From assembly GCA_024975835.1 (NCBI GenBank), contig GCA_024975835.1_4840.1: a stretch of DNA of 64,000 bases. One strand, 5' to 3'. The notes below the pieces were generated by a model. It did not search any database, was not told the DNA's origin, and saw only the letters and a program-made list of their open reading frames with translations. The first letter of the stretch is position 1. The number at the start of each line of letters is the position of its first letter. Below, piece after piece: positions 46,894 to 64,000 of this stretch. The stretch comes from a phage. The translations under genes and the position numbers were made by a program.

Positions 46894-46933
46894 TCTTCAA
46901 CACCATATTCAAACTCAGGTGATGGAGATTATC

Positions 46934-48712
46934 ATGGCCACGCAAACAGTCCCTTCACTCGATGTCAGGGCTTTCGAGTATCTTATCAAGAAGCGTATGA
47001 AAGCTGATCCAACTTTCAAGGATTATGACTTTGAAGGTTCTGGTCTCAGTGCAATCGTGCGTATCTTGGCCTCGGATGCCAACTCTATCGGGTTCATGCA
47101 GAACATGCTGAATGGCGAAAGCCATCTTCACTCTGCTCAACAGCGTTCTAATGTCGGTCTTGCGGCCGGGTTCTTGTCGTACACCCCTCATAACTACCAG
47201 GCGGCGTACCTGTATGCAAACGTCACAGTCACTCCATATGACGCCAGCACGGCTCCGGACACGATTATAATGGATCGCCGCGCGATGTTCATTGGGGCGA
47301 AGGATGGCAAATCCTACAACTTCACGGTTGAACAACCTGTGAGTGCCTCTCTTGTAGACGGCTCTTACAAGTTCGAGAACATCAAACTCATACAGGGTAA
47401 CTGGCTGTACAAGTCCTATGACGTGGAAGGCAGCGCGATTTCTACCTATGTGATCCCATCTTCTTCCGTGGACATCGACCATATGGTAGTGCAGGTACAG
47501 GAATCTGAGACATCTGACGTGCGGTCTACCTTCTCACGGTATGTCAGCCCGTTCGATTTGAGCCAGTATGCGCAACTCTACTTCGTTGAGCTGGGGTTGG
47601 ACGGAATGTACACGTTCGAATTCGGTGATGGGTACATCTGCAAGCGAGTAGAAGACGGCAATGTTGTGTACCTCCAGTATCTGGAGACAGCTGGTGCGGA
47701 CGGCAATGACATCACTGCCTTGTCCTCCGCGTCTTCCATCGGGGGATTCAACCTTGTAGATGTTGAGCTGGTGTCAGAACGTTCTTCCGGCGGTGCGGAC
47801 CCAGAGAGCATTGAGGACATCAAGCGCCTTGCTCCGCTGGCTTATCAGGCAGAGGGTGCGGCGGTAGCCGAAGTCGATTATGCTGTGTTGACCGAGCGTC
47901 TGTTCTCCAACGTCTCCCGCGCCAAAGCATATGGCGGAGACACGCTCTCTCCGCCCGACTCCGGATACGTTTACATTGCTGTGGTGCCTTCTGTTGGTGA
48001 GACGCTCTCGGACGCCGAGAAGGCAGATATCGTGGCGACGTTGGACAAGTACAATGTGGGTACGATCACACCCAAGATTGTCGACGCTGAACTGACTTAT
48101 GTTGATGTCACCACCCGCGTGTTCTGGGATCCGACTTCCACGTCCTATACCGAAGAGCAGTTGAAGACAGTCGTGAAGAACGGTGTTGTCAACTGGGGCT
48201 TGGGGAACCTAGAAGGATTCGACGAACTGTTCGATAAAGAGCAGTTACAGTCGGCCATCACCGACATGGACAGATCGATAGTGTCAAACATCACTTCTGT
48301 GAAGTATAAGCGCCATTTCAAGCCAGACTATGGGGTACTGGACAGCTTCACATTCGATTTTGGGCGCTCGATTGCGTCTGGTTCTGTGCGTATCAGTGGG
48401 TTTAAGCCGCTTCCGGCCGAGGTCGAATTCACTTACTACATACGCGACGTCAGTGGTGTCCTGAATATGTACAAGGTGAGTACAACAGACACGACCAAGG
48501 AATATCTGGTACAAGCTGTTGGAACGGTTGATTATGTGAATGGCGTTGTTGAACTCCAGCGTATCATAGTATCCAACTACAACACTGAGGGTGTGACAAT
48601 AATTGTGTCTCCAGACGGTCTTGACCAGAACATTCAGGCCACACAGAATCAGGTGCTCCGCATCGGTGCTGTAACTGTGGAGCCGGAGGTGCGTTATGTC
48701 CAAAGATCTTAA
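46934..48712 (+). CDS. baseplate wedge protein (Baseplate-J / T4 gp6-like, tentative)
   Basis: Start at MATQTV (GGAG 6 nt upstream); about 590 aa, first gene of the late plus-strand module. Confidence 0.5.
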   Translation: MATQTVPSLDVRAFEYLIKKRMKADPTFKDYDFEGSGLSAIVRILASDANSIGFMQNMLNGESHLHSAQQRSNVGLAAGFLSYTPHNYQAAYLYANVTVTPYDASTAPDTIIMDRRAMFIGAKDGKSYNFTVEQPVSASLVDGSYKFENIKLIQGNWLYKSYDVEGSAISTYVIPSSSVDIDHMVVQVQESETSDVRSTFSRYVSPFDLSQYAQLYFVELGLDGMYTFEFGDGYICKRVEDGNVVYLQYLETAGADGNDITALSSASSIGGFNLVDVELVSERSSGGADPESIEDIKRLAPLAYQAEGAAVAEVDYAVLTERLFSNVSRAKAYGGDTLSPPDSGYVYIAVVPSVGETLSDAEKADIVATLDKYNVGTITPKIVDAELTYVDVTTRVFWDPTSTSYTEEQLKTVVKNGVVNWGLGNLEGFDELFDKEQLQSAITDMDRSIVSNITSVKYKRHFKPDYGVLDSFTFDFGRSIASGSVRISGFKPLPAEVEFTYYIRDVSGVLNMYKVSTTDTTKEYLVQAVGTVDYVNGVVELQRIIVSNYNTEGVTIIVSPDGLDQNIQATQNQVLRIGAVTVEPEVRYVQRS

Positions 48713-49550
48713 TAACGGACACAATGGGGTGAAATATGAAACCCCATTGTTTTACCAGAATGAATTCCCAGTATTCATCGAGTTTATGGATACGTTCTTC
48801 AACTGGTTGTATCGACAGCAGGGATTCACCGAAGAGGAGATCTTGGCGTATCTGGCAGACACTGGTGGCTGGGTGAACCCAAATACGGATCAGTCTCCTA
48901 TTGAGCAGTTGATTGACATCAAGAAGCGCAAGACGCCAGGTACTGAGGCCAAAGACTTCTTGGAAGACAAGTTCCTGACGCGCACGTTTGAGAACATGAT
49001 GGCGCTAGACTTCGAAGATTTGCTGGACGTGGACGGTCGGCCATTAATCTCAATGGAAGACAAGAACGAACGCATCGACGATTGGTATGCTGATTTTGGA
49101 TTCCAGAGAACGGTTGATAAGTCCTTCCTGGAGTTCGGGAAGTTTGTGCCAGTTGGTTCGGACAGTTTGGTGACTTCAGACGGAGACACTCTCTCTGTAT
49201 ATGTCGAGGGAACTGAACGCCGGACACTGGACCATGTACGCTGGTTGAAGTTACTTAAACACATTTATCGCATTCGCGGGACGAAGAAAGCGATTGAATT
49301 GTTCTTCTGGATTTACTTTGGTTGCCCAGTGAGTGTGTATTATCCCAAGGAAGCAATTGGTGGCCTGGATGACAACTTTGAATGTGACGGCGCGACAGGA
49401 ATGCGTGACGATTACTACTATGATGAATTCACGTATGTGATAAGAGTTCCTGGCAACGTATCTGATTTTGAAGGTGTGTTTGATCGCGTCTTCCGTCAGC
49501 ATTTCCATCCTGCTGGGTTTACTGTATTCCTAGAAAGTTCAAGGAGTTAA
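48696..49550 (+). CDS. putative baseplate/tail structural protein
   Basis: 284-aa ORF translationally coupled to neighbours. Confidence 0.45.
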   Translation: MSKDLNNGHNGVKYETPLFYQNEFPVFIEFMDTFFNWLYRQQGFTEEEILAYLADTGGWVNPNTDQSPIEQLIDIKKRKTPGTEAKDFLEDKFLTRTFENMMALDFEDLLDVDGRPLISMEDKNERIDDWYADFGFQRTVDKSFLEFGKFVPVGSDSLVTSDGDTLSVYVEGTERRTLDHVRWLKLLKHIYRIRGTKKAIELFFWIYFGCPVSVYYPKEAIGGLDDNFECDGATGMRDDYYYDEFTYVIRVPGNVSDFEGVFDRVFRQHFHPAGFTVFLESSRS

Positions 49551-49552
49551 AA

Positions 49553-50743
49553 ATGGCCGATTTTCTGAGTCAATACACAGGTCAGCAGATTGATGCAATC
49601 CTTTCTTCTGTTGACGATAAAATAAGCAAGACTGATGTTGTCAACGATTTCGCTGTTGATGATCCGTTGTTCCCTCCTTCAGCTCATTTGACATACGAGC
49701 TGAAGCGTTCTGTGGATAATATCTACGACACACTGGAAAACAAAGTGATCCGCACCGACGGTGGTGAACAAACGATCAACGGGAGAAAGACTTTTGTTGC
49801 GTTGTTGACCGCCAACGGCGGCCTGACTGTTCCGGCTGGAAAGAAACTTTCTATCGCGGATGAGCCTACGATAGCGACAGATGGTGTTAACCTGAGCATG
49901 TTGAGAAAGCATGGTGTCAGTGAAGACACTACCCCACCTGGTTCTGGTTTGGCTGGGGAGTTGTTGGCATCCGGATATTACAAATTCAATTTGGATTTCA
50001 CCAAATTGTCTGCGTATATCGGATCAACGTTGCCGACTTCAATCCCAGTACAAACAGATTCTGGAGCGCGTTATTGGACAATGACTGCATTTTTTGATGC
50101 GTTGTTTGCAGATAACCGATTTAATGGATATGTGACAACGACAGCGTATGATGCAGATATGCTGAGTTTAGAGTCCCAGATTAATAACATCAACACATCG
50201 TTGAACGGGAAAGTCAACACATCGACTTACAACACTAAGATGGCGTCATTGGATTTGAGTATCTCCAATATCAATACGTCTCTGGGTAATAAAGTCGAGG
50301 TCAGCACGTACAACACGAAGATGACATCTCTGGATAACAGCATCAGTTCTCTTTCCAGTGATAAAGTTAATGTATCAACGTATAATGCCAAGATGACCTC
50401 TGTCGACAATAGTTTAGGGAACGCCGTTTATCGTACCAAAACGAATTTGTCTTCTTACACGGTTTCGGCTTCTGGGACGACGGCTCTTCCAGATTTTGAT
50501 TTGGTGAACCTTTGTCAAATACTGGTGACCGCGCAATGGGGAACAGGTAACGTTGTTGATACATATCGAGTAACCATAACTCGCGACGGAACTATCAAAT
50601 CGGAGTTGTTGGTTCAGAAAAGTACGAGCGGTACAGTGACGTTCACAGGTTCTGTGGTGGGTGGTAAATTGAGAATTTCCGTTGTTAATGCGAACACGAC
50701 GACTGCGTGCTACGTTGACTACAATCTAGTCGCTTCTTTCTAA
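49553..50743 (+). CDS. tail-fibre-like protein with tandem 23-aa repeats
   Basis: 396 aa; repeats of the type N(I/T)SL(N/G)xKVxxSTYNxKM(A/T)SLDxS in the central region. Confidence 0.5.
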   Translation: MADFLSQYTGQQIDAILSSVDDKISKTDVVNDFAVDDPLFPPSAHLTYELKRSVDNIYDTLENKVIRTDGGEQTINGRKTFVALLTANGGLTVPAGKKLSIADEPTIATDGVNLSMLRKHGVSEDTTPPGSGLAGELLASGYYKFNLDFTKLSAYIGSTLPTSIPVQTDSGARYWTMTAFFDALFADNRFNGYVTTTAYDADMLSLESQINNINTSLNGKVNTSTYNTKMASLDLSISNINTSLGNKVEVSTYNTKMTSLDNSISSLSSDKVNVSTYNAKMTSVDNSLGNAVYRTKTNLSSYTVSASGTTALPDFDLVNLCQILVTAQWGTGNVVDTYRVTITRDGTIKSELLVQKSTSGTVTFTGSVVGGKLRISVVNANTTTACYVDYNLVASF

Positions 50744-50751
50744 AGTGAAAA

Positions 50752-50758
50752 CTAAATA
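50752..50758 (+). promoter_or_regulatory. late-promoter-like CTAAATA motif
   Basis: ACTAAATACCCC 38 nt upstream of the ATG at 50796. Confidence 0.4.
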
Positions 50759-50795
50759 CCCCTAGATGAAACGAACACATTTAGGGGTATTTGAA

Positions 50796-53700
50796 ATGGC
50801 TAATAAACCAACACAGCCTGTTTTCCCTCTCGGTCTGGTGGCTGAAGAGCAGTCTACTTTGGCTGGTGTCGTCAACACGGGTACGATTGAGCATGGACCA
50901 GATGCTGTCCTGACTTTACCCGAGGGTAATGCCAGCGCAGGACTCCCGTCTTCCGTTCGCTACAATGCCGACTCCGACGAATTTGAGGGCTTCTATGAAA
51001 ATGGTGGATGGTTGCCGCTGGGTGGCGGTGGTATCCGCTGGGAAGTCCTTCCGCATGCCTCTACGGCAACGCTCACTGAAGGGCGAGGCTATCTCATTAA
51101 TAATACCACAGGGGCATCTACAGTGGTTCTCCCTTCCCCTACGCGTGTTGGGGATTCTGTTACTATTTGCGACGCTTATGGGAAATTTGCCACTTACCCA
51201 TTGACTGTGTCTCCTTCTGGAAATAATTTGTATGGCTCCACTGAAGACATGGCTATAACAACTGATAACGTATCAGCAACGTTCACTTGGTCTGGACCTG
51301 AACAAGGTTGGATTATTACATCCGGCGTCGGTCTTGGCCAAGGTCGTGTCTACAGTCGTGAAATCTTTACAAAAATTTTGGCGTCTGAGACAAGTTCTGT
51401 CACTCTCAATACTCCACCAACAATCGTGGACGTGTATGCTGATGGAAAACGTCTTGCGGAATCCAAATATTCACTAGATGGGAATGTAATCACTTTCAGT
51501 CCTTCTTTGCCAGCCAGCACAGAACTTCAGGTGATTGAATATACTCCTATTCAATTGGGTATTGGGGATGGTTCTGGCTCTTCCACGATTACCTGGGTCT
51601 ATAATGGGGGTTCAGCGATTGGTGGTGAAACCGAAATCACGTTGGACGTCGTTGTTGATGATGTTCCGGCCATTGATATAAACGGAAGTCGCCAGTATAA
51701 AAATCTGGGGTTCACATTCGATCCATTAACCAGTAAAATCACTCTTGCGCAAGAACTGGAACCAGAGGATGAAGTTGTTGTAATTATCAATGGAACACCA
51801 AACATCTATAATCAAATTGATCATACTTTGCGGGAAGTTGCTCGCGCAACCAATGTTAAAGATACAGAGGTCGTTTATTTTAGTGTTGGTGCTGCGTTAA
51901 GTGGGTATAAAGTTATTTATGACAAGGAGACGCAAAGGGCTTATCCCTTGCCTGCTGATATTGCCCCTGGTACTACTGCTGTCAGTCTTAGTTCTTCCGC
52001 TGTACTTGTGCATTCAGCGGGTTCTGTAGACCTCGGGGAATTGGCTGTTACTCGTGAAGAGTACGTCACATTGTCCGGAACATTTGATACTGGTGTAACA
52101 GTTAATACCAAGAATGAACTGGTTGTTTTTACTGATGGTAAGTACCGTTGGGATGGGGTGTTGCCTAAAGAAGTTTCTGCTGGCTCAACTCCAGAGACTG
52201 CTGGTGGTGTAGGTGCGGGAAAATGGTTGAGTGTTGGTGATGTATCATTGAGAGCCGACTTACTGTCAGGTGGCATGACTGATTTAATTGGATTTCCTGG
52301 GTACAACAATCTTACAGCATTCTTGCATACCACTGTTCGTACAGTAGAAGAGTTCAGAAGTGACGGACTAACTGACGCACAGGTATTCCAAGCGGCAATC
52401 AATGCAGGTAACGTGCGTGTGCCAGCAGGTAGCGTTATTAACATCACAGGGAATATTGATATCACTATCCCAGCCAATCGTTTAATTGTTGTAGATGACG
52501 GAGGTATATTACGCTCTAACGGTCGTTTTACAGCTTACGGCGTAAACGATGTTCATTGGGTAATTAACGGACTAGTTGAAAGCACTGGCATGGTTGCGGC
52601 CCCGGCAAAATCTGGATGGCCCAATACAGCAGAAGGCACTCAAGCGGGAGATGAGCGTGGGTTTATTGAGTTTGGTGGTGTTGTATTCGCCGGTAACGAT
52701 GGGAAGAATTATTCTGTAACTGGTTCAGGGCACATTCAGGGTCCATGGTCTGGAACTCCTAACGTTTCAGATTTAGCCAATCAGTTAAATAAAAAGGGTA
52801 TTGCTGCGTGGAACTGCTCAGGATTCACTGTTGAAGGCGTTAGTATCGACGGCTTTGAAGGTGAGCAAGTGTATTGGTTTGCTCGCAACGCAGACAACAG
52901 AGACGCAATTTTCAATAGAGTAAAAAGTACCAATGCACGTTTTAACGCCCTGAACATGAACGTGTACAGCGCAACAAAAAATATTCGTGTGATCGATTGT
53001 TACACCAATAATTCGTACAACGGAATTGAATCATCTGCTGGTGATATCATTAACACAATCCATGACAATCCGGTTAACACAGGTATTCTGTTTGGTTCAG
53101 GTACTGGTGGTGGCAACCGATTAATTGAAGGCAATCAGGTGAACGAATGCCTCGGAACACCTTATTCACTACTTTATAATAAGGACTATGAAAGTCGTGG
53201 GTATGTACCTAACGTTACAGTGGTAAACAACACCGCAACAAACCCCGGCGTTCACTTCATCGCCATCTCAGGCATCACTGGATTCAAAGTCGCCAACAAT
53301 ACATGTTACGGGCTTAAAACAGGTAGATTTATTCAGGCCACCGTTTTACAAGGCGGTATTATAGAAAATAATACTAACTACAAACCATCACCAGGGACAG
53401 AGCACGTCTATCGTGGCGAATGTTATAGCGTAGAAGAGCATAATAACGCGCGTGTACTTTTAGGCGGTTCGTATGTTACTGCCGCCGCGTCAGACCACGC
53501 CATAACCGGGGGGAATTCAAGCGCTATAACGACATTCGGCAATCGTGAAAACTTCAAGGATTTACGTGCTGACAGTCCAGCAATCGGAACTGGCGCAGAA
53601 CTTAGATACTCTGTTGATATAGGCGCCGCATTTACTCCTGTATCGTTAAGTATGCAACTGACCACATATGGGGGTTCAGGCGCTCAAGCTGACTGGTCTA

Positions 53701-54275
53701 TCAATAACCTAAAGATAAATCCTAATGATGTACTTGGGCAGTCATGGGTGTCTCGACATACAGGACATTGGGAACCTGGGACTGATGGTATACAAAATTT
53801 CGGGTCACCAACGCGCCGTGTTAACAACAGCTATTTCACGGTAGCGCCTACTGTAACGTCTAATGAAATGGCTAAAACTGCGCTGTTAGATCTATCTGAA
53901 GCAGAACGTAACGCGGCATTAGAAATTAAAGATAACATTCGCAAGTATAAGCTATTAGATGCTATCGCTATTAAAGGGGAGGATGGTGCCCGTTGGCACT
54001 TCGGTGTGGGTGCACAAACGGTAGGCGATATAATGAGAAAACATGGACTTAATCCTGCTGACTATGGGTTTTGGTGTCACGATACATGGGAAGACCAATA
54101 CACGGATGTAATGAAAAAAATTTATACCGGAAATACCGTTGTAAATGAGGAAGGACTTTCAGTTCCTGAATACACATTAGAACCAACAGGTGAAAGGATG
54201 CTTGTTAGGACCGCCGGAGAAAACTACGGCATTCGTTATGATGAATTGTCTATGTTTATATTAAGTGCAATATAA
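50796..54275 (+). CDS. tailspike protein 1 (beta-helix depolymerase-like, C-terminal chaperone-like domain)
   Basis: Start at MANKPTQ (AGGGG upstream); conserved anchor module around residues 350-480; pectate-lyase-like repeats in the middle; C-terminal GARWHFG...GIRYDE domain shared with tailspike 2. Confidence 0.65.
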   Translation: MANKPTQPVFPLGLVAEEQSTLAGVVNTGTIEHGPDAVLTLPEGNASAGLPSSVRYNADSDEFEGFYENGGWLPLGGGGIRWEVLPHASTATLTEGRGYLINNTTGASTVVLPSPTRVGDSVTICDAYGKFATYPLTVSPSGNNLYGSTEDMAITTDNVSATFTWSGPEQGWIITSGVGLGQGRVYSREIFTKILASETSSVTLNTPPTIVDVYADGKRLAESKYSLDGNVITFSPSLPASTELQVIEYTPIQLGIGDGSGSSTITWVYNGGSAIGGETEITLDVVVDDVPAIDINGSRQYKNLGFTFDPLTSKITLAQELEPEDEVVVIINGTPNIYNQIDHTLREVARATNVKDTEVVYFSVGAALSGYKVIYDKETQRAYPLPADIAPGTTAVSLSSSAVLVHSAGSVDLGELAVTREEYVTLSGTFDTGVTVNTKNELVVFTDGKYRWDGVLPKEVSAGSTPETAGGVGAGKWLSVGDVSLRADLLSGGMTDLIGFPGYNNLTAFLHTTVRTVEEFRSDGLTDAQVFQAAINAGNVRVPAGSVINITGNIDITIPANRLIVVDDGGILRSNGRFTAYGVNDVHWVINGLVESTGMVAAPAKSGWPNTAEGTQAGDERGFIEFGGVVFAGNDGKNYSVTGSGHIQGPWSGTPNVSDLANQLNKKGIAAWNCSGFTVEGVSIDGFEGEQVYWFARNADNRDAIFNRVKSTNARFNALNMNVYSATKNIRVIDCYTNNSYNGIESSAGDIINTIHDNPVNTGILFGSGTGGGNRLIEGNQVNECLGTPYSLLYNKDYESRGYVPNVTVVNNTATNPGVHFIAISGITGFKVANNTCYGLKTGRFIQATVLQGGIIENNTNYKPSPGTEHVYRGECYSVEEHNNARVLLGGSYVTAAASDHAITGGNSSAITTFGNRENFKDLRADSPAIGTGAELRYSVDIGAAFTPVSLSMQLTTYGGSGAQADWSINNLKINPNDVLGQSWVSRHTGHWEPGTDGIQNFGSPTRRVNNSYFTVAPTVTSNEMAKTALLDLSEAERNAALEIKDNIRKYKLLDAIAIKGEDGARWHFGVGAQTVGDIMRKHGLNPADYGFWCHDTWEDQYTDVMKKIYTGNTVVNEEGLSVPEYTLEPTGERMLVRTAGENYGIRYDELSMFILSAI

Positions 54276-54281
54276 CAAAAA

Positions 54282-54306
54282 CCCCGCTTTGGCGGGGTTC
54301 TTATTA
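54282..54306 (+). terminator. intrinsic terminator
   Basis: CCCCGC-TTTG-GCGGGG hairpin followed by TTCTTATTAT. Confidence 0.7.
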
Positions 54307-54310
54307 TACC

Positions 54311-54374
54311 TTTGTTCATAAATTTATTAGTTCAGACTAAATACCCTATATTGGCAAATCCTTTATGGGGTATT
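54311..54374 (+). repeat. 64-bp direct repeat, copy 1 (promoter/leader cassette)
   Basis: Identical except one base to 56971..57034; contains CTAAATACCC and the RBS/start context of tailspike 2. Confidence 0.7.
54337..54343 (+). promoter_or_regulatory. late-promoter-like CTAAATA motif
   Basis: 35 nt upstream of the ATG at 54378. Confidence 0.4.
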
Positions 54375-54377
54375 ATC

Positions 54378-56696
54378 ATGATTTCTCAATTCAATCAACC
54401 ACGCGGCTCCGCTTCCATAGAAGTTAACAAACAATCTATCGCTCGAAATTTCGGTGTCAAAGAAGACGAAGTCGTTTATTTCACTGCTGGTATTGATCTC
54501 AGTGGATTTAAAGTAATTTATGATGAGACCACCCAACGGGCTTATTCTCTCCCTTCCGGTATTGTTTCAGGGACAACTGCAATTAGTCTGGACGAACGAG
54601 CTATCCTCACTCATTCCGCTGGTTCTGTTGATCTAGGGGAACTTGCCGTAGCCAGAGAAGAATATGTAACCTTACCTGGTTCATTTGATACCGGTGTAAC
54701 CGTCAATGCTAAGAATGAATTGGTTGTCTTTACCGACGGCAAGTACCGTTGGGATGGGGAGATTCCCAAAATAGTACCTGTCAACACAACCCCTAAAGAT
54801 ACTGGGGGTGTTGGTCTAGGGGCATGGTTAAGAGTCGGCGATGCATCTTTGCGTTCTGAAGTTTACTCAAATATGGCTTGGGTTTCTCCTGAAATGTACG
54901 GTGCACTTGAAACGGAATCTGATGCGGATACTCAAGCTGTTATAGATGCGTTTATTACCGCGAAGACAATGGGGCTGGCTGTGAAGCTGTCCAGAATATA
55001 TAAGTGTGATCAAAACATATCAGTAGCTAATTTTTACGGAGATATTTTTGGCGTAAGTATGGCCACATGCGGAATAAAATTTGCTGCTGGATATGGTCTT
55101 ATCATTGATAACTCTGGGACCACAGTAGTACGCAAACCTGTAGGTCTTTGTAATTTCACCATTAAAGCCACTGGTAAACGACAAGGCACTGCTCTAGAGT
55201 TTCTAGGTACTGGTGGAATAGCTTATGCACGACAACTTATTGTAAGAGATTTAGATGTATCAAATGATGCTGGAACCCCTACCTCTTTTGATGTAGTATT
55301 CAAGTTAAACCGTGCAGGTCAATGTGTATTTGATGGGGTGAATGTCGCTGGCGGTGGCACAAGCGACCCCAACGCTCGCATGGGCAAAATATTCGACCTG
55401 TACTCAACAAAGAATATCAATGTTGTCAACGGTTCTTATCAGAACTTCGACACCTTCATGTACGCGCATGACGATACCGAAGGTGTTGTGGTTTTCGGTA
55501 ACCACATCATCGCAGGTCGTCGTGGTGTTGTCTCAGAAAACAATGTTGGCAACTTGTTCCAGGTAACGAACAACCACTTCAACACATCGTTGAGTGCTGT
55601 AGAGTTGGGCGATCTGTCTAACAACGGTGGGAACCATAGCATAATCACCGACAACTTCTGTATGGTATGGAATGGGATTCCTGAAGATGATACTACGCCA
55701 TATATCGGGTTCAAGTCCTGTGCCATGTACGGAACCTATAGTGATAATGAGGTGCTTCTGTCTGGTTTCACTAAAGACGTTACTCACACCTTGTTTACTT
55801 CTAATGCCACAGGGACCAGAACGGCACAATACAATATAGTAAGCAACCCAAGAGTTAATAATTGTACCAGAGGCATTCATATGCTGGCTGGCACCCAATC
55901 GAACCATGTGAGCAACGTCCAGCGCGTAGGCGTAACACTGGCAAATGCCATCATAGATGAAGGGGCAAACAACAGGTCATGGATGTTTGATGTAGATAAT
56001 AATGCATTTATGACCAGAAACATAAAATTGTGCACTCCAGGTTCAGCCGTTGCGCAGCAAATTCGTTTTTACTCCGCTACTGATGCAAATACACCAAGCG
56101 CCATTCTCCGAGTATCTGGAGGCGTTGCCGGTGTTGGCGGGGATGGGACGGCAGAGCTTACTGCTGGTACTACCGTCTTTAAAAACATTAGACCGTCAGC
56201 TGCAAACACTTATAGCTGCGGATCTAGCGGTGCACCGTGGTCTGGCGGGTTCACACAAACTGCATTCACCGTGACATCTGATGCTGATTACAAATCAGAT
56301 CCACTGCTGATGACTGATGATATTCTTGATGCAGCAGAAGAGGTACAACTTGTCCAGTATCAATATCTCGACAGGATTGAAGAAAAAGGAGCTGACGGTG
56401 CCCGCTGGCACTTCGGAGCCATTGCACAACGGTATGTAGAGGCATTTGAAAGACACGGGCTTGATGCTCATCGCTTTGGGTTCATCTGTTATGATGAATG
56501 GGGTGATGCTCCTGCTGTCATAGATGAAGATACTGGCGAAGTGATCACGCCAGCTATTGAGGCAGGATCAAGATACGGCATTCGTTATGAAGAAATGCTG
56601 GTAATGGAAGCAGCGCTGCAACGCAGAAACTATGCGCGGCTACTTGATAAATACGAAACACTTGAGGCTCGTATTAGCTCATTAGAGAATAAATAA
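54378..56696 (+). CDS. tailspike protein 2 (with C-terminal chaperone-like domain)
   Basis: Start at MISQFN; N-terminal anchor module nearly co-linear with that of tailspikes 1 and 4; C-terminal domain homologous to that of tailspike 1. Confidence 0.6.
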   Translation: MISQFNQPRGSASIEVNKQSIARNFGVKEDEVVYFTAGIDLSGFKVIYDETTQRAYSLPSGIVSGTTAISLDERAILTHSAGSVDLGELAVAREEYVTLPGSFDTGVTVNAKNELVVFTDGKYRWDGEIPKIVPVNTTPKDTGGVGLGAWLRVGDASLRSEVYSNMAWVSPEMYGALETESDADTQAVIDAFITAKTMGLAVKLSRIYKCDQNISVANFYGDIFGVSMATCGIKFAAGYGLIIDNSGTTVVRKPVGLCNFTIKATGKRQGTALEFLGTGGIAYARQLIVRDLDVSNDAGTPTSFDVVFKLNRAGQCVFDGVNVAGGGTSDPNARMGKIFDLYSTKNINVVNGSYQNFDTFMYAHDDTEGVVVFGNHIIAGRRGVVSENNVGNLFQVTNNHFNTSLSAVELGDLSNNGGNHSIITDNFCMVWNGIPEDDTTPYIGFKSCAMYGTYSDNEVLLSGFTKDVTHTLFTSNATGTRTAQYNIVSNPRVNNCTRGIHMLAGTQSNHVSNVQRVGVTLANAIIDEGANNRSWMFDVDNNAFMTRNIKLCTPGSAVAQQIRFYSATDANTPSAILRVSGGVAGVGGDGTAELTAGTTVFKNIRPSAANTYSCGSSGAPWSGGFTQTAFTVTSDADYKSDPLLMTDDILDAAEEVQLVQYQYLDRIEEKGADGARWHFGAIAQRYVEAFERHGLDAHRFGFICYDEWGDAPAVIDEDTGEVITPAIEAGSRYGIRYEEMLVMEAALQRRNYARLLDKYETLEARISSLENK

Positions 56697-56784
56697 AAAT
56701 CCTACTCTCCTGAGAGTACTATGTATATGCATTCGTTATTTACGGTTGTAAACTATAGTAATTACATTAACAATCCAATAGGTA

Positions 56785-56810
56785 AGCCCCAGCATATGGG
56801 CTTTTTGTTG
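56785..56810 (+). terminator. putative intrinsic terminator
   Basis: AGCCC-CAGCATAT-GGGCT hairpin followed by TTTTGTTG. Confidence 0.55.
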
Positions 56811-56941
56811 TACCCCAAACAATCCTTTATGTAGACTGTTTTAGTCAATTACGACTTAACTAACCTGAGAAAGTCCCTATGGGAAATGAACCAGATAACG
56901 TAACTCTAGCGAGAGACTGAGAAACATTTCGAAAACCAAAA

Positions 56942-56966
56942 CCCCGCTTCGGTGGGGTTTCTCTTA
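56942..56966 (+). terminator. intrinsic terminator (second, in tandem)
   Basis: CCCCGC-TTCG-GTGGGG hairpin followed by TTTCTCTT; near-copy of the 54282 terminator. Confidence 0.65.
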
Positions 56967-56970
56967 TACA

Positions 56971-57034
56971 TTTGTTCATAAATTTATTAGTTCAGACTAA
57001 ATACCCCATATTGGCAAATCCTTTATGGGGTATT
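56971..57034 (+). repeat. 64-bp direct repeat, copy 2 (promoter/leader cassette)
   Basis: 63 of 64 identical to 54311..54374. Confidence 0.7.
56997..57003 (+). promoter_or_regulatory. late-promoter-like CTAAATA motif
   Basis: 37 nt upstream of the ATG at 57040. Confidence 0.4.
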
Positions 57035-57039
57035 TTCAA

Positions 57040-59103
57040 ATGACCAGAAACGTCGAGAGCATCTTTGGAGCGGTCGTAACAGCTCCACACCAGATTCCAT
57101 ACACTTACACAGCAACTGGCGGAGAGAAGTTTATCTCCCTCCCTTTCTACCCTGTCACTGGAGTAGTCACAGTCAACGGTAGTATGCAAGTTCCGTTAGA
57201 CAACTTCGAGATAGACGGGAATACGTTAAACCTTGGGCGCGCATTATCCAAAGGCGATGTTGTGTTCTGTCTGTTTGATAAGATTCTTTCGCCAGAAGAT
57301 TATAAAACCGGGATTCGAATCTATAAGTTTCAGGCTGTAGGAGGTGAAACTGAGTTCACTCCTGATTTCACATCTTATGGAGTCCAATCTCTTTATATCG
57401 GTGGTGAGTACAAAACACCCGAAATTGAATATTCCTATAACAGCACGACAGGGAAAGTGTCTTTGCAAACTGCACTGACTGCAGGCGTTTGGGTTGTGGC
57501 TGAAATGTCTGCTAAACAACCGAATATCGGTCCGTTGTTTGACCGAAGTATTCAAGAAATCGCTCGTGCAGCTAACGTAAAAGACTCTGAAGTAATCCTT
57601 AGTACAGATAGTACCCAGTTCCTGAATGACAAGAAGATTGTTTATTCTGTTAGTGAACAGAAGGCTTATGGGTTACCAGTATTACCTACTAACGTATTCA
57701 TTCAGTCTGTGGATAATGGCAAGTTAACTTACTCCCCAGGTAACATTGCTGTAGACCTGGTTCCTGTTCCTGGCTCTGCTGAGTCACTTACTGCTTCGGA
57801 TGTTCCAACTACTTCTGGGGATTCCGTACAGGATGGGTTAGATAGTATTGATGTATTTATTGATACTGACTCATATAAGAGAGTTGGGGATATTCGCGGT
57901 TATACAACCACGCAGGATGTAACTCCTGTTAACGCAATTATTGCAGCAAATCAAGATGTTGGTATTATTCGGCTACCTAAGGGTAACTGGACTGGTAACT
58001 TTGCTCTGCTAAATAAAACTAGTTTAGATGGCACTTCACTTGCTACTACAACGTTAACTGTTCCAATTAATACAGCAGGTATTAAACCCTCCGGTACTGA
58101 TGTACGTGGTATTAACATTAGTAACATTGCTATGCAGGTGGTGGGTGCTGTGTCTGGTGGGGCACCAATTGGTACAGGTATTGGTCTGGATATGACTGGC
58201 TGTACTAAGATGGTTAACTGTACTATTTCTAATATCTATAGTGATTTCTTTGATATTGGTTTCAAAGCTGGCCCTGCTGATTTCTCTAACGTTTACAATA
58301 ACATTCGCTGTAATAACAACCGTATTGGTTTTGATATTTCTAGTAACGGGCAGATTATTGAGAATACCTGGAACAGCCCATATGCTGCTAACTGGACCCA
58401 GATTGGTATGAAGATTAGTGGTGTTGGTGGTCAGGTAATCAATGCACCAAACTTTGGGCATAATGGCACCGCTGGCGCTTACTTCATGCACATTGACACC
58501 AACTCCCGTGGAGTGATTATTAATGGTGCTAACTTCGAAATGGATGCTGTAGGTGGTAAACTTTCTGCTGGTAGCCAAGCAGTAATTGTAGCTTCTGACT
58601 CAGCAGTTACTTTTAATGCCCCTGTATTCAATAAGGTTGGTGCTGCTGGCCCTAATACCTATCTTTTTCGTATCCGTGGTACATGTGTAGTACATATTAA
58701 CAATCCGCAGATTTACAATGATGATGGGATTGTTGGACACTTACGTATTGAAGATACTGCTACTGTATATCTGAATGACCCTAAAGGCGTTATTACGGTA
58801 ATTTCTGTGGCAGCAGGTGCTAAGTTGATTCGTGTACATGAAAAACTGGCTAATGCACCTAGTTATACGGCTGTTCAATCAGTTCAGTCTGGTACAGTTG
58901 TAAACGTTGGTTTCTATCCTACGTATGCTATAGGTGTACCGGATTTCCATGCCAGCGCACTACCAGCTACATTTAAGTATGCCGTTACCTTTGATACGTA
59001 TAACTCTACCCATGGAACTATGGTAGCTAGGGTTTACGATACTACTACCGGGTTGTATGTTACTTCAGTATCTGTTCCCACATTCATTCAAGCATGGCGT
59101 TAG
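57040..59103 (+). CDS. tailspike protein 3
   Basis: Start at MTRNVES (track's upstream Met lies inside the repeat); shorter, divergent anchor region (IQEIARAANVKDSEV); Gly/Asn-rich beta-helix-like body. Confidence 0.6.
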   Translation: MTRNVESIFGAVVTAPHQIPYTYTATGGEKFISLPFYPVTGVVTVNGSMQVPLDNFEIDGNTLNLGRALSKGDVVFCLFDKILSPEDYKTGIRIYKFQAVGGETEFTPDFTSYGVQSLYIGGEYKTPEIEYSYNSTTGKVSLQTALTAGVWVVAEMSAKQPNIGPLFDRSIQEIARAANVKDSEVILSTDSTQFLNDKKIVYSVSEQKAYGLPVLPTNVFIQSVDNGKLTYSPGNIAVDLVPVPGSAESLTASDVPTTSGDSVQDGLDSIDVFIDTDSYKRVGDIRGYTTTQDVTPVNAIIAANQDVGIIRLPKGNWTGNFALLNKTSLDGTSLATTTLTVPINTAGIKPSGTDVRGINISNIAMQVVGAVSGGAPIGTGIGLDMTGCTKMVNCTISNIYSDFFDIGFKAGPADFSNVYNNIRCNNNRIGFDISSNGQIIENTWNSPYAANWTQIGMKISGVGGQVINAPNFGHNGTAGAYFMHIDTNSRGVIINGANFEMDAVGGKLSAGSQAVIVASDSAVTFNAPVFNKVGAAGPNTYLFRIRGTCVVHINNPQIYNDDGIVGHLRIEDTATVYLNDPKGVITVISVAAGAKLIRVHEKLANAPSYTAVQSVQSGTVVNVGFYPTYAIGVPDFHASALPATFKYAVTFDTYNSTHGTMVARVYDTTTGLYVTSVSVPTFIQAWR

Positions 59104-59109
59104 TAACTG

Positions 59110-59140
59110 CCCCCCCCTTCTCTCCTGGGAGGGGGGTTTC
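59110..59140 (+). terminator. putative terminator hairpin
   Basis: CCCCCCC...GGGGGG stem followed by TTTCC; loop unusually long. Confidence 0.5.
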
Positions 59141-59162
59141 CTAGAAAAACAAAGAGGTTTAT

Positions 59163-61241
59163 ATGAACGAAATGTTCTCACAAGGTGGTAAGGGTTCAAC
59201 TGGAATCTTAACCAACAAACAAGCAGTAGCTCGTCACTTTGGGGTTAAACAATCTGAGGTTGTTTACTTCTCAGTGGGTGCTGTACTAAGCGGTTATAAA
59301 GTTATCTATGACAAAGTGTCACAGCGTGCTTATTCCTTACCTGCCGACATTGGTTCAGGGGTTACTGCTGTAAGCCTTAGTCCTGCTGGGGTATTAGTTC
59401 ACTCTGACGGTAATGTTGACTTGGGTGCACTAGCCGTTACCCGCGAAGAGTATGTAACCCTACCTGGCTCATTTACTACAGGCGTTACTGTTAATAGTAA
59501 AAATGAACTTGTTGTGAGTGTTGGTGTTAAATACCGTTGGGATGGTTCTCTACCTAAAGTAGTTCCTCCTGATTCTACTCCATTAAGCACTGGGGGAGTT
59601 GGCCCAGGGGCATGGATAGTAGAAGGTGTTGCTGGGTTGGAGCAACGTTTGGCTTCCTGGGAAGGTTCATCCATTATTGACTCTGGTAATCTGTCCCTTT
59701 ACAAAAAGAGTGGTGTATTTGGTGATGGTGGGGAAGTAACTGATAAGCAACAGGTTATTAAGCATACAGATGGATTTTGGTACAAGTATACTGGAACCCT
59801 GCCCGTTAGCTATGGCTCTGCCCCAGACTCTTCCTGGACTAATGTTGGTAAGTTAACCGGGTTTAATGAACACTCACCTGAGAACTTTGGGGCAATCCCG
59901 AACGATGCCAGCTTTGACTGTCTACCTGCTATAAAATTAGCTATAGCTACAGGCACATTAAACCTGGATGGTAATTCTACCTACCACGTAACTGATGAGG
60001 TTATCATACCCTCACATCTACGTGGGAATTTGAATGGGGCAACAATCAAAGCAATCGGTCCTACCTGGCCTGTATTAAAATCTGTTGTTCGTGTTAGTAA
60101 ATTTCCTATTGGAACCCCAACCGTTGATGTAGCTAATACTGAGAACCAGGTACGAGGGCTACGTTTAATTGGTAGTTTGAACATAGACTGTGCAGATATT
60201 GCATCGTATGGTTTTTACGCACGACTAATGTGTGCAGAATCCGAGATGGGTAGTATCTATTCTTACAATGCTAATAAGTATGGCATTGTAATGTTCGCTT
60301 GCTGGTATTTTCAGATGGGCGTGCTTCATGCAAACAATTGTGCAAGGGGGATGGCTTTAGGTTACTCAACAGAAGGGGAGCAGGGCGATACTTACGTAAA
60401 CGCAACATACTTCCCACACATTAGTGCATGGGGTACTGATAAGTCTACGGGGCTAGGCTATGACCCAATCACCGACGATGCAAGTAAGTACACAATAGGT
60501 GCTGGTATTATTCTAGGCCGTGGTTTGTCCACTAGTGTTGGTGTGCTGTGCTCTGAGAATACATCCGGTGCTGGTGTGGTAACAATGGACCCTGCTGCGT
60601 GGGATATTGGAGTTATGTACTGTGAGGGCAACAGTAAAGACTTCACTCAGGAGGGTGAGCCGAAGGTATCATTGTTGTCATCTAAGGCTAACAGCGAGAG
60701 TCATACACTTACCATCTCTACACTTCACCTATCTGCTGGTTGTGGCATTTTAACCAGAAGTAAACAAGAACGGGTGTTGATCAGAAGTCTTTACCGTTTT
60801 GATAATTCAAAAACCTTCCACTCTTACTGCACAGAAGATACAATAGAGATTGGTAGTAGCAACTACTATGTACTTAATGGTCATAATTACAATGCACCTG
60901 CTGCACTTATTAAAGAACCTCTCAATGTGGATTTTGTGCGATCAGGGCTGACCTTGAGTGAGTGGACACCTACCGTTATTGGTTACTTTCCTGGCAGCAC
61001 GTCAGAACAACAGCTTTATGTTAAGCTGCCTGTAAGCCCTAGTGGGCTAGATCTACAGATTGCTAGTGAAGATGGTACAGAATACATCACTGTAACTGGC
61101 ACAGATTTTAAAGCCTCTTTAACCAAGAAAAGGCTGCCCAGTAAGGTGTATGAGATAAAGATTGGGTCTGTCTCAACAGTAGCTGTTACTGATTGCTCCA
61201 TTTTAATCAGAAGTAAAAAAGGAGATTGGTACTACTGGTAA
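59163..61241 (+). CDS. tailspike protein 4
   Basis: N-terminal module (VARHFGVKQSEVVYFSVGAVLSGYKVIYDK...KYRWDGSLPK) highly similar to tailspikes 1 and 2; distinct C-terminal body. Confidence 0.6.
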   Translation: MNEMFSQGGKGSTGILTNKQAVARHFGVKQSEVVYFSVGAVLSGYKVIYDKVSQRAYSLPADIGSGVTAVSLSPAGVLVHSDGNVDLGALAVTREEYVTLPGSFTTGVTVNSKNELVVSVGVKYRWDGSLPKVVPPDSTPLSTGGVGPGAWIVEGVAGLEQRLASWEGSSIIDSGNLSLYKKSGVFGDGGEVTDKQQVIKHTDGFWYKYTGTLPVSYGSAPDSSWTNVGKLTGFNEHSPENFGAIPNDASFDCLPAIKLAIATGTLNLDGNSTYHVTDEVIIPSHLRGNLNGATIKAIGPTWPVLKSVVRVSKFPIGTPTVDVANTENQVRGLRLIGSLNIDCADIASYGFYARLMCAESEMGSIYSYNANKYGIVMFACWYFQMGVLHANNCARGMALGYSTEGEQGDTYVNATYFPHISAWGTDKSTGLGYDPITDDASKYTIGAGIILGRGLSTSVGVLCSENTSGAGVVTMDPAAWDIGVMYCEGNSKDFTQEGEPKVSLLSSKANSESHTLTISTLHLSAGCGILTRSKQERVLIRSLYRFDNSKTFHSYCTEDTIEIGSSNYYVLNGHNYNAPAALIKEPLNVDFVRSGLTLSEWTPTVIGYFPGSTSEQQLYVKLPVSPSGLDLQIASEDGTEYITVTGTDFKASLTKKRLPSKVYEIKIGSVSTVAVTDCSILIRSKKGDWYYW

Positions 61242-61252
61242 TAGATAGGAAA

Positions 61253-61280
61253 AGCCCCCAGAATTGGGGGCTTATTTCTT
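61253..61280 (+). terminator. intrinsic terminator
   Basis: AGCCCCCA-GAAT-TGGGGGCT hairpin followed by TATTTCTTTC. Confidence 0.7.
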
Positions 61281-61303
61281 TCTATTCCTCGGTTGGTTGT
61301 ATA

Positions 61304-61310
61304 CTAAATA
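61304..61310 (+). promoter_or_regulatory. late-promoter-like CTAAATA motif
   Basis: 35 nt upstream of the ATG at 61345. Confidence 0.4.
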
Positions 61311-61344
61311 TCTCTATAATGGCACCTATCGATGGAGCATCAAA

Positions 61345-64000
61345 ATGCAAGAAATGAACCTCAACCGCCGCCCATATTGGGATGACTGGAATCCAGAGAA
61401 GCGTTTTTCGCGCATCCTATTCCGTCCGGCACCTATCAAAGTTCAGACGCGTGAACTGAACCAGATGCAGACCATCTTCCAGGATCAACTGGAGAAACTT
61501 GGCAACCATCTGTTCAAAGACGGTTCAATGGTTATCCCCGGCGGCCTAACGATCACCAACACTGCTGTGTCCATGAAGTTCACTCTGGCTGGTGGTAGTG
61601 AGTTCACTGATCTGGAAGGTATCTCCGAACTCTATGTTCTGGGCAAGGACAACAATGCGAAAGCACGCGTCCTGTCCTTGGAACGTTATCCGGCTGAGCC
61701 AGATACAATGTATGCCATCTTAGAGATGACTGAGAGTGGTAGTTCAGACGGTTTCGAAGCTGGCGACAATCTATACTTCAACACCTATGACGTGAACGAT
61801 AACTTCATCCGTGTCGGCTATGGTGTGGCCGATACTGTTGGTGGTTCGATTGTCGCTCGCATGACAAAGGGTGTTTATTTCGTTCGTGGTATGTTCCTGG
61901 ATGTTGAACCAACCACTTTGATCGTAGACAACGCATCGAACTCTACATCTCACCGCATTGGCTTCAAAGTTACAGAAACAATCGTGACTGAAGCAGAAGA
62001 TGAAAGTCTGTTCTCCAATGCTCAGGGTACTCCGAACTCTAAAGCCCCTGGTGCGCATCGCCTGCGCGTCGACCTCGTGTTGTCTCGCTACGGTTATGAT
62101 GAAGAAGTGGCCGACTTCGTTGAACTGGCGAAGGTGAAAGACGGTCGCATTCAGTCCATGGTCACCCAGTCAACGTACAACATCCTCGAAGACGCCATGG
62201 CTCAGCGTACCTATGAGACTAATGGTGACTACAACGTCTCTACTCACCAGATCGACCTGCGCGAACATCTGAAACAGAACAACAACGGCGGCGTTTACAC
62301 TCCGGCTGAAGGTGGTGATGAAAGCAAATTCGTGGCGGTTATGAAGCCAGGGATATCCTACGTTCGTGGTCGTCGTATCGAAAACCTCGGCGAAGAGCTG
62401 GTCATAATTGAAAAAGCCCGTGACACTGATATCCTGAACAACAACCCTGTGGCTGTTTCGACTGGCAACTATCTGGTGTCCAAGAACTCCAAAGGGGTTC
62501 CGGTTGTCTCCCGCACAATCCGCTACAAGTTCCTGAACGCATCTAGCGATGTGCAGGCCACCGCCCTGCTGATTTCGGCAGAGCGCTCCGGTACTGAATT
62601 CCGTCTGTATATGCGCGACCTGGTTGTGACTGGAGACATGGGTACGGTGACCAAAGTCGCTTATGAAGAAAGCGGTACAACGATGTTCTCTTGCGAACTG
62701 GAGTCCAATCAGTTCAGTCAGAGTTCGGCGATTGACCTGATCTTCCCTCTTCCTGTATTTGGTGTGAAGACCCTAGCACCTACAGGCACCATCGACATCA
62801 ACTACACTGTCCTGCGGTCAAACAAGATCACGTTGAACGCCGCTGGTGCAGGCTCAATCTCTGCTCCTCTGGGTTACAGCTTCAGCCCTGAGTTTTCACT
62901 GTACTCCGCAGCGAAAGCAGATGGCACTGCAGCTCAGTTTGATATCTCTTCGGGACTGTCCCTGGCTGGTACTCCGGTTGGTTCAGCACTGCAGATTTCC
63001 CTGGGCGCGGGGTACGCCAACCAGTCTATCAACCTGTTGGCATTGATGGTCCGCACCACAGCGACGATCAAGACCAAGACTGTTACCGAAGTCACCGAGA
63101 CTGTGACGTTTACTACGGCAGCCAGCGTACAACTTGGGAACCACGACGGATACAAGCTGGTCAGCGTGAAGAACGCAAATGGTGCTGACGTCACCTCGAA
63201 CTTCACTCTGGACGGCGGTCAGCGTGATGCTGCATACTACCTTTCTAACCTCGTATCGTCTACTGGATCCATCTCAGGCGTGTTCACAGTGGTGTACCAG
63301 TACTTCGCTCACAGTTCTGGTGATTTCTTCACAGCGGACTCCTATTCGTCCATCAACTACCCAGACATCCCGAACTATGTTTCATCCAGTTCTGGTACTG
63401 TGTATGGGTTGGCCGACAGCCTGGACTTCCGTCCTAAGATCACCAACGGAACGTCTGACACGGACATGGTTCGCCCGAACACCGCGATCATCCTAGATGC
63501 AGAGTACTATCTGCCTCGTATTGATGCCGTGTATCTGGCAGACAACGGCGTGTTCAACGTTGCTCGCGGTGTGAGTTCCAACAGCCTGGCTTCCCCTGCG
63601 ATCCCAGACAACGGCATGCGTCTGTACGAATTGATGATCCCACCATACACGGCCAACATTGACGACATCCAGATTCGCACTATCGACAACCGCCGCTACA
63701 CGATGCGCGATATCGGTAAACTGGAGACCCGTATCTCCAATGTCGAATATTACACCTCACTGTCTCAGCTGGAATCCTCGGCGATGGCGCAACAGGTGTT
63801 CGATCCAATTACTGGCAACCCGCGCTTCAAGAACGGTATCGCAGCAGACCCGTTCAAAGACTTCCGTCTGATCGACGATTTGTCTGCAGACTGGGTGGGT
63901 TCAATCGACACTGACAATGGTCGCCTGCGTCCGTTTGTTCAGCAGAACGCGATTGACCTGACGCCAGTCGGTTGGAACAACGTTCAGGATGGCATGGTTG
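61345..64000 (+). CDS. large virion structural protein (baseplate/tail-associated), 3' end beyond window
   Basis: I translated this frame codon by codon from ATG 61345 to position 63999: about 885 codons with no stop. Not in the ORF track because no stop falls inside the window. Confidence 0.6.
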   Translation, partial: MQEMNLNRRPYWDDWNPEKRFSRILFRPAPIKVQTRELNQMQTIFQDQLEKLGNHLFKDGSMVIPGGLTITNTAVSMKFTLAGGSEFTDLEGISELYVLGKDNNAKARVLSLERYPAEPDTMYAILEMTESGSSDGFEAGDNLYFNTYDVNDNFIRVGYGVADTVGGSIVARMTKGVYFVRGMFLDVEPTTLIVDNASNSTSHRIGFKVTETIVTEAEDESLFSNAQGTPNSKAPGAHRLRVDLVLSRYGYDEEVADFVELAKVKDGRIQSMVTQSTYNILEDAMAQRTYETNGDYNVSTHQIDLREHLKQNNNGGVYTPAEGGDESKFVAVMKPGISYVRGRRIENLGEELVIIEKARDTDILNNNPVAVSTGNYLVSKNSKGVPVVSRTIRYKFLNASSDVQATALLISAERSGTEFRLYMRDLVVTGDMGTVTKVAYEESGTTMFSCELESNQFSQSSAIDLIFPLPVFGVKTLAPTGTIDINYTVLRSNKITLNAAGAGSISAPLGYSFSPEFSLYSAAKADGTAAQFDISSGLSLAGTPVGSALQISLGAGYANQSINLLALMVRTTATIKTKTVTEVTETVTFTTAASVQLGNHDGYKLVSVKNANGADVTSNFTLDGGQRDAAYYLSNLVSSTGSISGVFTVVYQYFAHSSGDFFTADSYSSINYPDIPNYVSSSSGTVYGLADSLDFRPKITNGTSDTDMVRPNTAIILDAEYYLPRIDAVYLADNGVFNVARGVSSNSLASPAIPDNGMRLYELMIPPYTANIDDIQIRTIDNRRYTMRDIGKLETRISNVEYYTSLSQLESSAMAQQVFDPITGNPRFKNGIAADPFKDFRLIDDLSADWVGSIDTDNGRLRPFVQQNAIDLTPVGWNNVQDGMV

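Follow-up and report, generated by a model that had tools for sequence, protein, structure and literature searches.

The 64,000-nucleotide window of phage DNA analyzed here (contig GCA_024975835.1_4840.1) contains two adjacent tailspike genes whose products end in a similar sequence, which raises the question of what this shared C-terminus does and how two spikes of one phage came to carry it. Self-cleaving folding domains are ordinary and well documented in phage spikes and fibres, and some Ackermannviridae spikes carry such a chaperone domain according to a review (PMC11721090). An earlier note on this DNA had drawn the same comparison for the last part of its tailspikes 1 and 2. Taking the evidence below together, it is very probable that both C-termini are C-terminal intramolecular chaperone domains (CIMCD; Peptidase_S74 in MEROPS and Pfam; ICA in PROSITE) which fold the trimer, cleave themselves and were acquired separately.

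The phage is an Aglimvirinae-like member of the Ackermannviridae, and the window carries its baseplate and four-tailspike cluster. Judged by N-termini and in the standard naming of the family, tailspikes 1 and 2 are orthologues of TSP4 and TSP3, while the remaining two spikes, which have no such domain, are TSP2 and TSP1. Both domain-bearing reading frames are present on the + strand. The TSP4-type gene (50796..54275, 1159 aa) is counted from the ATG at 50796, 30 nt into the listed reading frame, and the TSP3-type gene (54378..56696, 772 aa) from the ATG at 54378. These starts, M11 of the listed TSP4 frame and M23 of a TTG-started TSP3 frame, are likely because the CBA120 N-terminal structures align from these residues; moreover, the RPN242 homologue is annotated to begin 30 bases into the DNA match, that is, at M11 of TSP4. 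Residues 11-348 of the listed TSP4 frame match the CBA120 TSP4 N-terminal structures 7rej/7rfo (E about 1e-195), and residues 1-165 of TSP3 match residues 1-165 of CBA120 TSP3 (6nw9/5w6f; E 1e-83). Further downstream on the + strand lie a TSP2-type gene (57025..59103), with an N-terminus similar to CBA120 TSP2 (6w4q, E 4e-124), and a TSP1-type gene (59163..61241), with an N-terminus similar to 4qnl and CBA120 TSP1 (4oj5). Pfam Tail_spike_N matches residues 427-492 of the listed TSP4 frame and also matches TSP3; no NCBIfam family matched any of the four spikes. TSP4 has an anchor/XD N-terminus, a TD region, a receptor-binding body and the C-terminal chaperone domain. A terminator-like hairpin directly 3' of its stop codon (54280..54299, +) supports 54275 as the true gene end, and a second one follows TSP3 (56784..56803, +).

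The TSP4 domain runs from Ser1022 to the last residue (53859..54272, +; 138 aa, 15.6 kDa) and the TSP3 domain from Ser634 to the end (56277..56693, +; 139 aa, 16.0 kDa), so the length of about 110 residues first given for them was too short. Both reach the stop codon and hence form the extreme C-terminus of proteins whose N-termini match CBA120 TSP4 and TSP3. Their proposed homology is borne out over these last 138 and 139 residues: BLASTP aligns residues 1027-1168 of the first protein with residues 651-767 of the second at 35% identity (E 1e-17), separately from a strong N-terminal similarity. The Ser-x4-Lys segments are as described, SNEMAK from 53859 (Lys1027) and SDADYK from 56277 (Lys639), and of the other quoted motifs GIRY(D/E)E is found as GIRYDE and GIRYEE. 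GEDGARWHFG is exact in TSP4 only, within KGEDGARWHFG, the corresponding stretch of TSP3 being KGADGARWHFG. Conserved sequence also reaches about 25 residues upstream of the serine. In TSP4 this pre-cleavage segment is DGIQNFGSPTRRVNNSYFTVAPTVT (53784..53858, +), with Asp at -25, Arg at -14 and Thr at -1 from the Ser; in TSP3 it is NTYSCGSSGAPWSGGFTQTAFTVT (56205..56276, +), with Thr at -1 and Pro instead of Arg at -14.

A search with Peptidase_S74-type profiles, which the earlier note had named as a check, was positive. TSP3 matches Pfam PF13884 over its whole length (profile positions 1-58 of 58) with 42.6 bits against a gathering score of 22 (E 7e-11), whereas TSP4 gives a partial match below the cut-off (18.4 bits, profile positions 15-58 only). 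The resemblance to the intramolecular chaperone family was nevertheless confirmed for both proteins by phmmer against solved members, namely phi29 gp12 (3gud; E 6e-22 for TSP3 and 2e-8 for TSP4), the K1F endosialidase (3gw6; 2e-14 and 2e-11) and T5 pb1 (4uw8; 7e-11 and 5e-7). In PHROGs the same tail spike and fibre families are hit by both C-termini, in each case at the C-terminal end of the family. Because of these matches and of the fold search described below, TSP4 is counted in the family despite its sub-threshold Pfam score. A word-indexed protein search with the TSP4 domain returned 2 relatives, too few to align, so an exhaustive search of cluster representatives was used instead; 7,436 of them matched at E ≤ 1e-3.

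The fold was predicted for TSP4. Its C-terminus was modeled by AlphaFold with a mean pLDDT of 86 and values above 93 across the domain; the prediction is of a monomer, the real domain being an intertwined trimer. The family fold is a helical/alpha-beta core with a long beta-hairpin tentacle and a terminal helix; the model agrees with it and has a long hairpin at model residues 125-162. In a Foldseek search against the PDB, the ten best matches were all 3gw6, 4uw8 and 3gud (E 3.5e-12 to 3e-7), 3gw6 being the best, and the next was the ICA domain of MyRF (7dc3). The TSP4 domain lacks the long terminal helix seen in the K1F, T5-like and K5 lyase domains, which places it in a short-ended subfamily; this helix is present in TSP3. 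A TSP4 domain shortened by mutation was considered and rejected, since its closest relatives end at the same residue (146 of the 150 best within 4 residues of that point) and the terminator hairpin follows the stop.

The catalytic Ser and Lys of characterized members are conserved in both proteins. SNEMAK and SDADYK align with ANGERK of 3gw6, which is the S911A mutant, and with the SD..K of the K5 lyase, phi29 gp12 and a T5-like fibre, so that the Ser-x4-Lys dyad falls on Ser911/Lys916 of endoNF and Ser1264/Lys1269 of T5. When the window proteins are aligned with the K1F endosialidase, K5 lyase, T5-like L-shaped fibre and phi29 gp12, every sequence has the Lys and both window proteins have the Ser; across the aligned relatives, Ser is kept in 151/152 and Lys in 150/152. 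Upstream, Asp -25, Arg -14 and Thr -1 are kept in 137, 140 and 139 of the 152 sequences, respectively. All three are present in TSP4, and their spacing equals that of Asp1239, Arg1250 and Thr1263, the residues of the mechanism proposed for T5 pb1; there, the Arg at -14 comes from the neighbouring chain and was proposed to act as a folding sensor (PMC4690869). The Arg at -14 is shared by TSP4, K1F and the T5-like fibre. TSP3, like most of its subfamily, keeps Thr -1 but lacks the Asp at -25 and has a Pro in place of the Arg, and most of its closest relatives have in common the motif PW[SA]GGFTQTAFTVT|SD. Judging from these alignments, Asp -25 and Arg -14 are not universal in the Peptidase_S74 family, and their absence means that this part of the published mechanism is not simply transferable to TSP3.

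By analogy with characterized members, we infer chaperone function and cleavage for both domains. Three nascent chains would come together via the C-terminal domain, whose helices and long beta-hairpin tentacles would nucleate the intertwined trimeric stalk and beta-helix lying upstream and set their register. Once the trimer is correct, the Lys five residues downstream would activate the hydroxyl of the Ser, which would attack the preceding Thr-Ser peptide bond and free a piece of about 16 kDa that would not be found in the virion. For TSP4 (Ser1022/Lys1027), a precursor of 123.6 kDa is predicted to yield a mature spike of 108.1 kDa (residues 1-1021) and a 15.6 kDa fragment. For TSP3 (Ser634/Lys639), the predicted precursor of 83.4 kDa would give 67.5 kDa (residues 1-633) and 16.0 kDa.

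It is very unlikely that the domains, while homologous to the chaperone family, instead escape cleavage and stay with the mature spike, as a cap at its distal end or as a binding module. The missing Arg at -14 in TSP3 and the shortened terminal helix in TSP4 would fit such a cap, but both proteins retain Ser and Lys, as do 150-151 of the 152 aligned sequences, and an uncleaved T5 pb1 mutant no longer competes for infection (PMC4690869). Furthermore, 7y5s and 6eu4 are close matches by deposited sequence yet are absent among the fold matches, which suggests that their models do not contain the chaperone domain. No literature was found for a further PDB entry, 9vvr.

That TSP4 alone cleaves itself is highly improbable; on this view the TSP3 domain would still aid folding, but for want of the Arg folding sensor its processing would be inefficient or take another form. 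The Pro at -14 in TSP3 and in most of the PW[SA]GGFTQTAFTVT subfamily, together with the lack of Asp -25, speaks for this division; however, the large TSP3 subfamily strictly keeps the Thr-Ser...Lys site, and TSP3 is the stronger Pfam match of the two. The K5 lyase belongs to the same subfamily, and its solved chain, 2x3h, stops precisely at the Ser-aligned position, which fits processing or construct design there; a literature search on how the K5 lyase is processed yielded a general statement and no direct description. It would be unlikely, though conceivable from the sequence differences, that divergent chaperone subfamilies sort the chains or else that the TSP3 subfamily has a cleavage trigger not yet described. 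The first of these ideas is speculative and arises because four co-expressed spikes have N-terminal modules that are 50-60% identical to each other; each subfamily might register and trimerize its own chains only, starting from the C-terminus, and so prevent mixed trimers. The second, equally speculative, stems from the replacement of the Arg folding sensor by Pro in the TSP3 subfamily.

How the two copies came to be adjacent can be approached from their closest relatives. Compared with the K5 lyase C-terminus, the TSP3 domain shows about 60% identity; the figure rises to 80-82% for E. coli proteins that carry PF13884 and are annotated as 'tail fiber domain-containing'. For the TSP4 domain, the highest identity seen with other proteins is 64%. 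Each is thus closer to copies in other phages than to its partner, which favours separate acquisition of the two modules. The adjacency of the TSP4 and TSP3 genes and the strong similarity of their N-terminal regions might instead suggest that the shared C-terminus arose by recent duplication or gene conversion between these neighbours. This is rejected as extremely improbable, since the C-terminal domains are just 35% identical, only two patches (51 and 24 nt) are alike at the DNA level, each has much closer relatives elsewhere, and they differ in the subfamily features of pre-cleavage motif, internal insertion and terminal helix. The two domains belong to different subfamilies and were most likely brought in, each together with its receptor-binding module, through exchange with other phages.

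As in endoNF of K1F (3gw6), the domain forms the C-terminal part of a trimeric spike and has a corresponding Ser-x4-Lys (Ser911/Lys916), and TSP4 shares with endoNF the Thr-Ser-Asn start, Asp -25 and Arg -14. Identity is only about 30%, however; the terminal helix extension of endoNF, some 20 residues long, is missing from TSP4, and the two spikes have unrelated catalytic bodies, TSP4 having no endosialidase match. TSP3 instead resembles the K5 lyase KflA/gp46 of phages K5A and K1-5 and related tailspikes of Kagunavirus and Vectrevirus, with which it shares the WSGGFTQ(T/A)AFTVT|SD motif and the terminal helix. These are podovirus or siphovirus spikes with another N-terminal adaptor and body, and the K5 lyase has an Arg at -15, while none lies close to the site in TSP3. 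The T5 L-shaped tail fibre pb1 (4uw8) and the phi29 gp12 appendage (3gud) have the same family and fold at 27-34% identity, but the carrier is a fibre in one case and a neck appendage in the other, not a tailspike of a branched complex; the mechanistic residues of pb1 correspond one-to-one with those of TSP4 (PMC4690869).

Other Ackermannviridae (CBA120, YX22, phi1_146029 and Serratia phage 3M) have the same four-gene cluster and N-terminal modules. Among eight related clusters scanned, the chaperone domain was also found in the TSP3-position gene of YX22, in one phi1_146029 spike and in gp036 of 3M; the regions fetched for the other five (RPN242, AV101, CECAV_050, PhiSH19 and ZQ1) contained no copy, and the AV101 paper does not mention chaperone domains. 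Within the window, TSP2 and TSP1 indeed lack the domain, with no S74 match in Pfam, in our own profile search or in PHROGs. Further hidden copies in these spikes or elsewhere were also considered and rejected, as neither PHROGs nor a domain-profile search of all six reading frames of the window gave any beyond the TSP4 and TSP3 genes. The suggestion that TSP2 and TSP1 might depend on a partner for folding is unnecessary. A PDB sequence search with both C-termini matched none of the four CBA120 tailspike structures, so with all four CBA120 spikes and five of the eight scanned clusters without the domain, its absence in TSP2 and TSP1 needs no special explanation.

Receptor-binding modules of Ackermannviridae appear to be exchanged along with their folding domain and across phage families. 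The two copies leave knowledge of the domain family itself unchanged; what the annotation adds is the predicted mature ends of two receptor-binding proteins, after residue 1021 of TSP4 and residue 633 of TSP3. These ends would be useful for recombinant depolymerase expression, virion proteomics and the engineering of chimeric spikes, in which the chaperone domain must accompany its cognate body. A protein identical to TSP4 is present in public assemblies, where it has no name. Two full copies of the domain are carried by this phage and by none of the eight scanned clusters, Serratia phage 3M having one full and one partial match.

Four tailspike genes lie in the right-hand part of the window and were assigned through their N-termini. 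The TSP4 orthologue (50796-54275) resembles the CBA120 TSP4 N-terminal structures 7rej/7rfo (E about 1e-195), the TSP3 orthologue (54378-56696) resembles 6nw9/5w6f residues 1-165 (E 1e-83), the TSP2 orthologue (57025-59103) matches 6w4q (E 4e-124), and the TSP1 orthologue (59163-61241) matches 4qnl and 4oj5. Therefore, the proteins called tailspikes 1 and 2 in the earlier note are TSP4 and TSP3. Their C-termini, which had been described as homologous, align over about 140 residues with 35% identity (E 1e-17), and the quoted motifs and both Ser-x4-Lys segments (SNEMAK in TSP4 and SDADYK in TSP3) were found in them. The shared part had been put at roughly 110 residues; counted from the Ser, however, the domains have 138 (TSP4) and 139 (TSP3) residues.

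The proposed resemblance to intramolecular chaperone domains was borne out by Pfam, PDB sequence, fold, and PHROG searches. With the Pfam Peptidase_S74 profile (PF13884, "chaperone of endosialidase"; cut-off 22 bits), TSP3 scored 42.6 bits, whereas TSP4 reached only 18.4 bits, a partial match under that cut-off; a search with such profiles was the check suggested in the earlier note. PDB sequence searches matched the TSP3 C-terminus to phi29 gp12 (3gud, 6e-22), endoNF (3gw6, 2e-14), and T5 pb1 (4uw8, 7e-11), and the TSP4 C-terminus to 3gw6 (2e-11), 3gud (2e-8), and 4uw8 (5e-7), which at the level of sequence settles the family membership of TSP4. Both C-termini also match the deposited sequences 7y5s, 6eu4, and 9vvr, all domain-carrying spikes; 7y5s is the Klebsiella phage Kp7 depolymerase (PMC12737672) and 6eu4 is Acinetobacter phage AS12 gp42, for which an ICA domain is annotated (PMC11058221). 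The C-terminal 183 residues of TSP4 were modelled with AlphaFold (alignment depth 34 sequences; mean pLDDT 86, above 93 from model residue 50 on); in the model, helices are accompanied by a long beta-hairpin, and a short helix ends the chain. The top ten Foldseek matches of this model in the PDB were all chains of 3gw6, 4uw8, and 3gud (E 3.5e-12 to 3e-7), followed by the eukaryotic MyRF ICA domain. In PHROGs, the two C-termini match a common set of tail spike and fibre families, at the C-terminal ends of these families. The chaperone-domain reading is thus supported by all computational tests available, with cleavage itself predicted. A search with the TSP4 domain returned 7,436 cluster representatives at E <= 1e-3, indicating a very large family. 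According to a recent review, the extreme C-terminus of some Ackermannviridae spikes holds an intramolecular chaperone (PMC11721090). The two domains are ordinary representatives of a well-characterised family that had already been noted in Ackermannviridae phages.

The putative catalytic residues are strongly conserved. When both domains were aligned with those of K1F endosialidase, K5 lyase, a T5-like L-shaped fibre, phi29 gp12, and a Serratia Ackermannviridae spike, the Lys was invariant, and the Ser was present in TSP4 and TSP3. In an alignment of the two window domains with the 150 relatives nearest to that of TSP4, 151 of the 152 sequences have the Ser and 150 have the Lys. In the mechanism proposed for T5, the scissile bond is described as Thr1263-Ser1264, with Ser activated by Lys1269 and the correct trimer sensed by Arg1250 of the neighbouring chain, placed between Asp1239 and Thr1263 (PMC4690869). 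All of these spacings recur in TSP4 (Asp -25, Arg -14, Thr -1, Ser 0, and Lys +5). TSP3, in contrast, retains Thr, Ser, and Lys but has Pro at -14 and lacks Asp at -25, as do most members of its subfamily (motif PW[SA]GGFTQTAFTVT/SD, slash before the Ser). Arg at -14, the proposed trimer-folding sensor, is shared by TSP4, K1F endosialidase, and the T5-like fibre, while in K5 lyase position -14 is Ala and the Arg lies one residue earlier, at -15. The T5 sensor step is therefore not transferable to TSP3 without a test. In gp036 of Serratia phage vB_SmaA_3M (8959-9471 of its locus), a Cys is aligned with the catalytic Ser (STCDAERK), which may reflect either a variant with a Cys nucleophile or a shifted alignment.

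The TSP4 and TSP3 domains differ in the pre-cleavage motif (segments 53784-53858 and 56205-56276, respectively, the latter covering TSP3 residues -24 to -1 relative to Ser634), in an insertion of about 22 residues in TSP4, and in the terminal helix, which is long in TSP3 and only about 10 residues in TSP4. Damage to the TSP4 gene as a cause of this short end was ruled out: the C-terminus lies no more than 4 residues from the same point in 146 of the 150 best relatives, and a terminator-like hairpin lies 3' of the stop codon. The TSP4 domain (53859-54272) belongs to a large short-ended subfamily, which does without the long helix that terminates the solved domains; an uncleaved member with a solved structure was not found in this subfamily. 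For both domains, the neighbouring copy is less similar than relatives outside this genome. For the TSP3 domain, identity is 80-82% with "tail fiber domain-containing" proteins of E. coli and about 60% with the C-termini of K5 lyase and Kagunavirus spikes; for the TSP4 domain, it is up to 64% with other proteins. Between the two domains, identity is only 35%, and their DNA is similar in just two short patches. The simplest reading of these comparisons is that the two domains would have been acquired separately, along with receptor-binding modules. G+C content falls from about 50% in 1-46000 of the window to 40-47% across the tailspike genes (46000-62000 compared), with the lowest value, 40.3%, in the TSP4 chaperone segment; this drop fits imported modules. 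The central receptor-binding bodies of TSP4 (52281-53783) and TSP3 (54876-56201) diverge from the nearest sequenced phages. They had no match in Pfam or NCBIfam, nor in the PDB sequence search, except that the 9vvr match takes in the final ~50 residues of the TSP3 body.

The other two spikes, TSP2 and TSP1, had been said to lack the domain, and the searches agree. The domain profile, run unfiltered over the window in six-frame translation, matched only in the TSP4 and TSP3 genes, and Pfam, PDB, and PHROG searches gave no hit in the TSP2 and TSP1 C-termini. None of the four CBA120 spikes was matched in PDB searches with the TSP3 and TSP4 C-termini. Across eight related clusters scanned, five have no copy and three have at least one, located in the TSP3-position gene of YX22, one phi1_146029 spike, and Serratia 3M gp036 and gp038 (partial). 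Spikes without the domain are the usual state in Ackermannviridae.

In the right-hand third of the window, the baseplate and tailspike genes of an Ackermannviridae phage form a cluster. Its conserved parts show 92-95% DNA identity to unclassified Aglimvirinae coliphages (vB_EcoM-RPN242, YX22, AV101, and ZQ1), and identity to Kuttervirus phages is about 86%; query coverage in the DNA comparison is only about one third because the receptor-binding parts diverge. Public assemblies contain identical copies of TSP4, TSP2, and TSP1, but all of these are unnamed or listed as "hypothetical". Gene order is that of related phages: a baseplate wedge gene, two small genes, four tailspike genes, and a homologue of the virulence-associated protein VriC. 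Only the start of the latter is present (61345-64000, continuing past the window end), with 98.6% identity to RPN242 gp159 over 865 residues. Directly upstream of TSP4, a 396-aa protein (49553-50743), conserved in relatives and annotated there as "hypothetical" or "baseplate wedge tail fiber connector", had no significant Pfam match and carries about four tandem copies of the 18-residue motif N(I/S)NTSL.NKV..STYN.KM.SLD. The minus strand carries four tRNA genes (Ser-GCT, Tyr-GTA, Asn-GTT, and Met-CAT) at 42676-43649, ahead of the baseplate genes, and tRNA genes are found at the same place in related Aglimvirinae phages.
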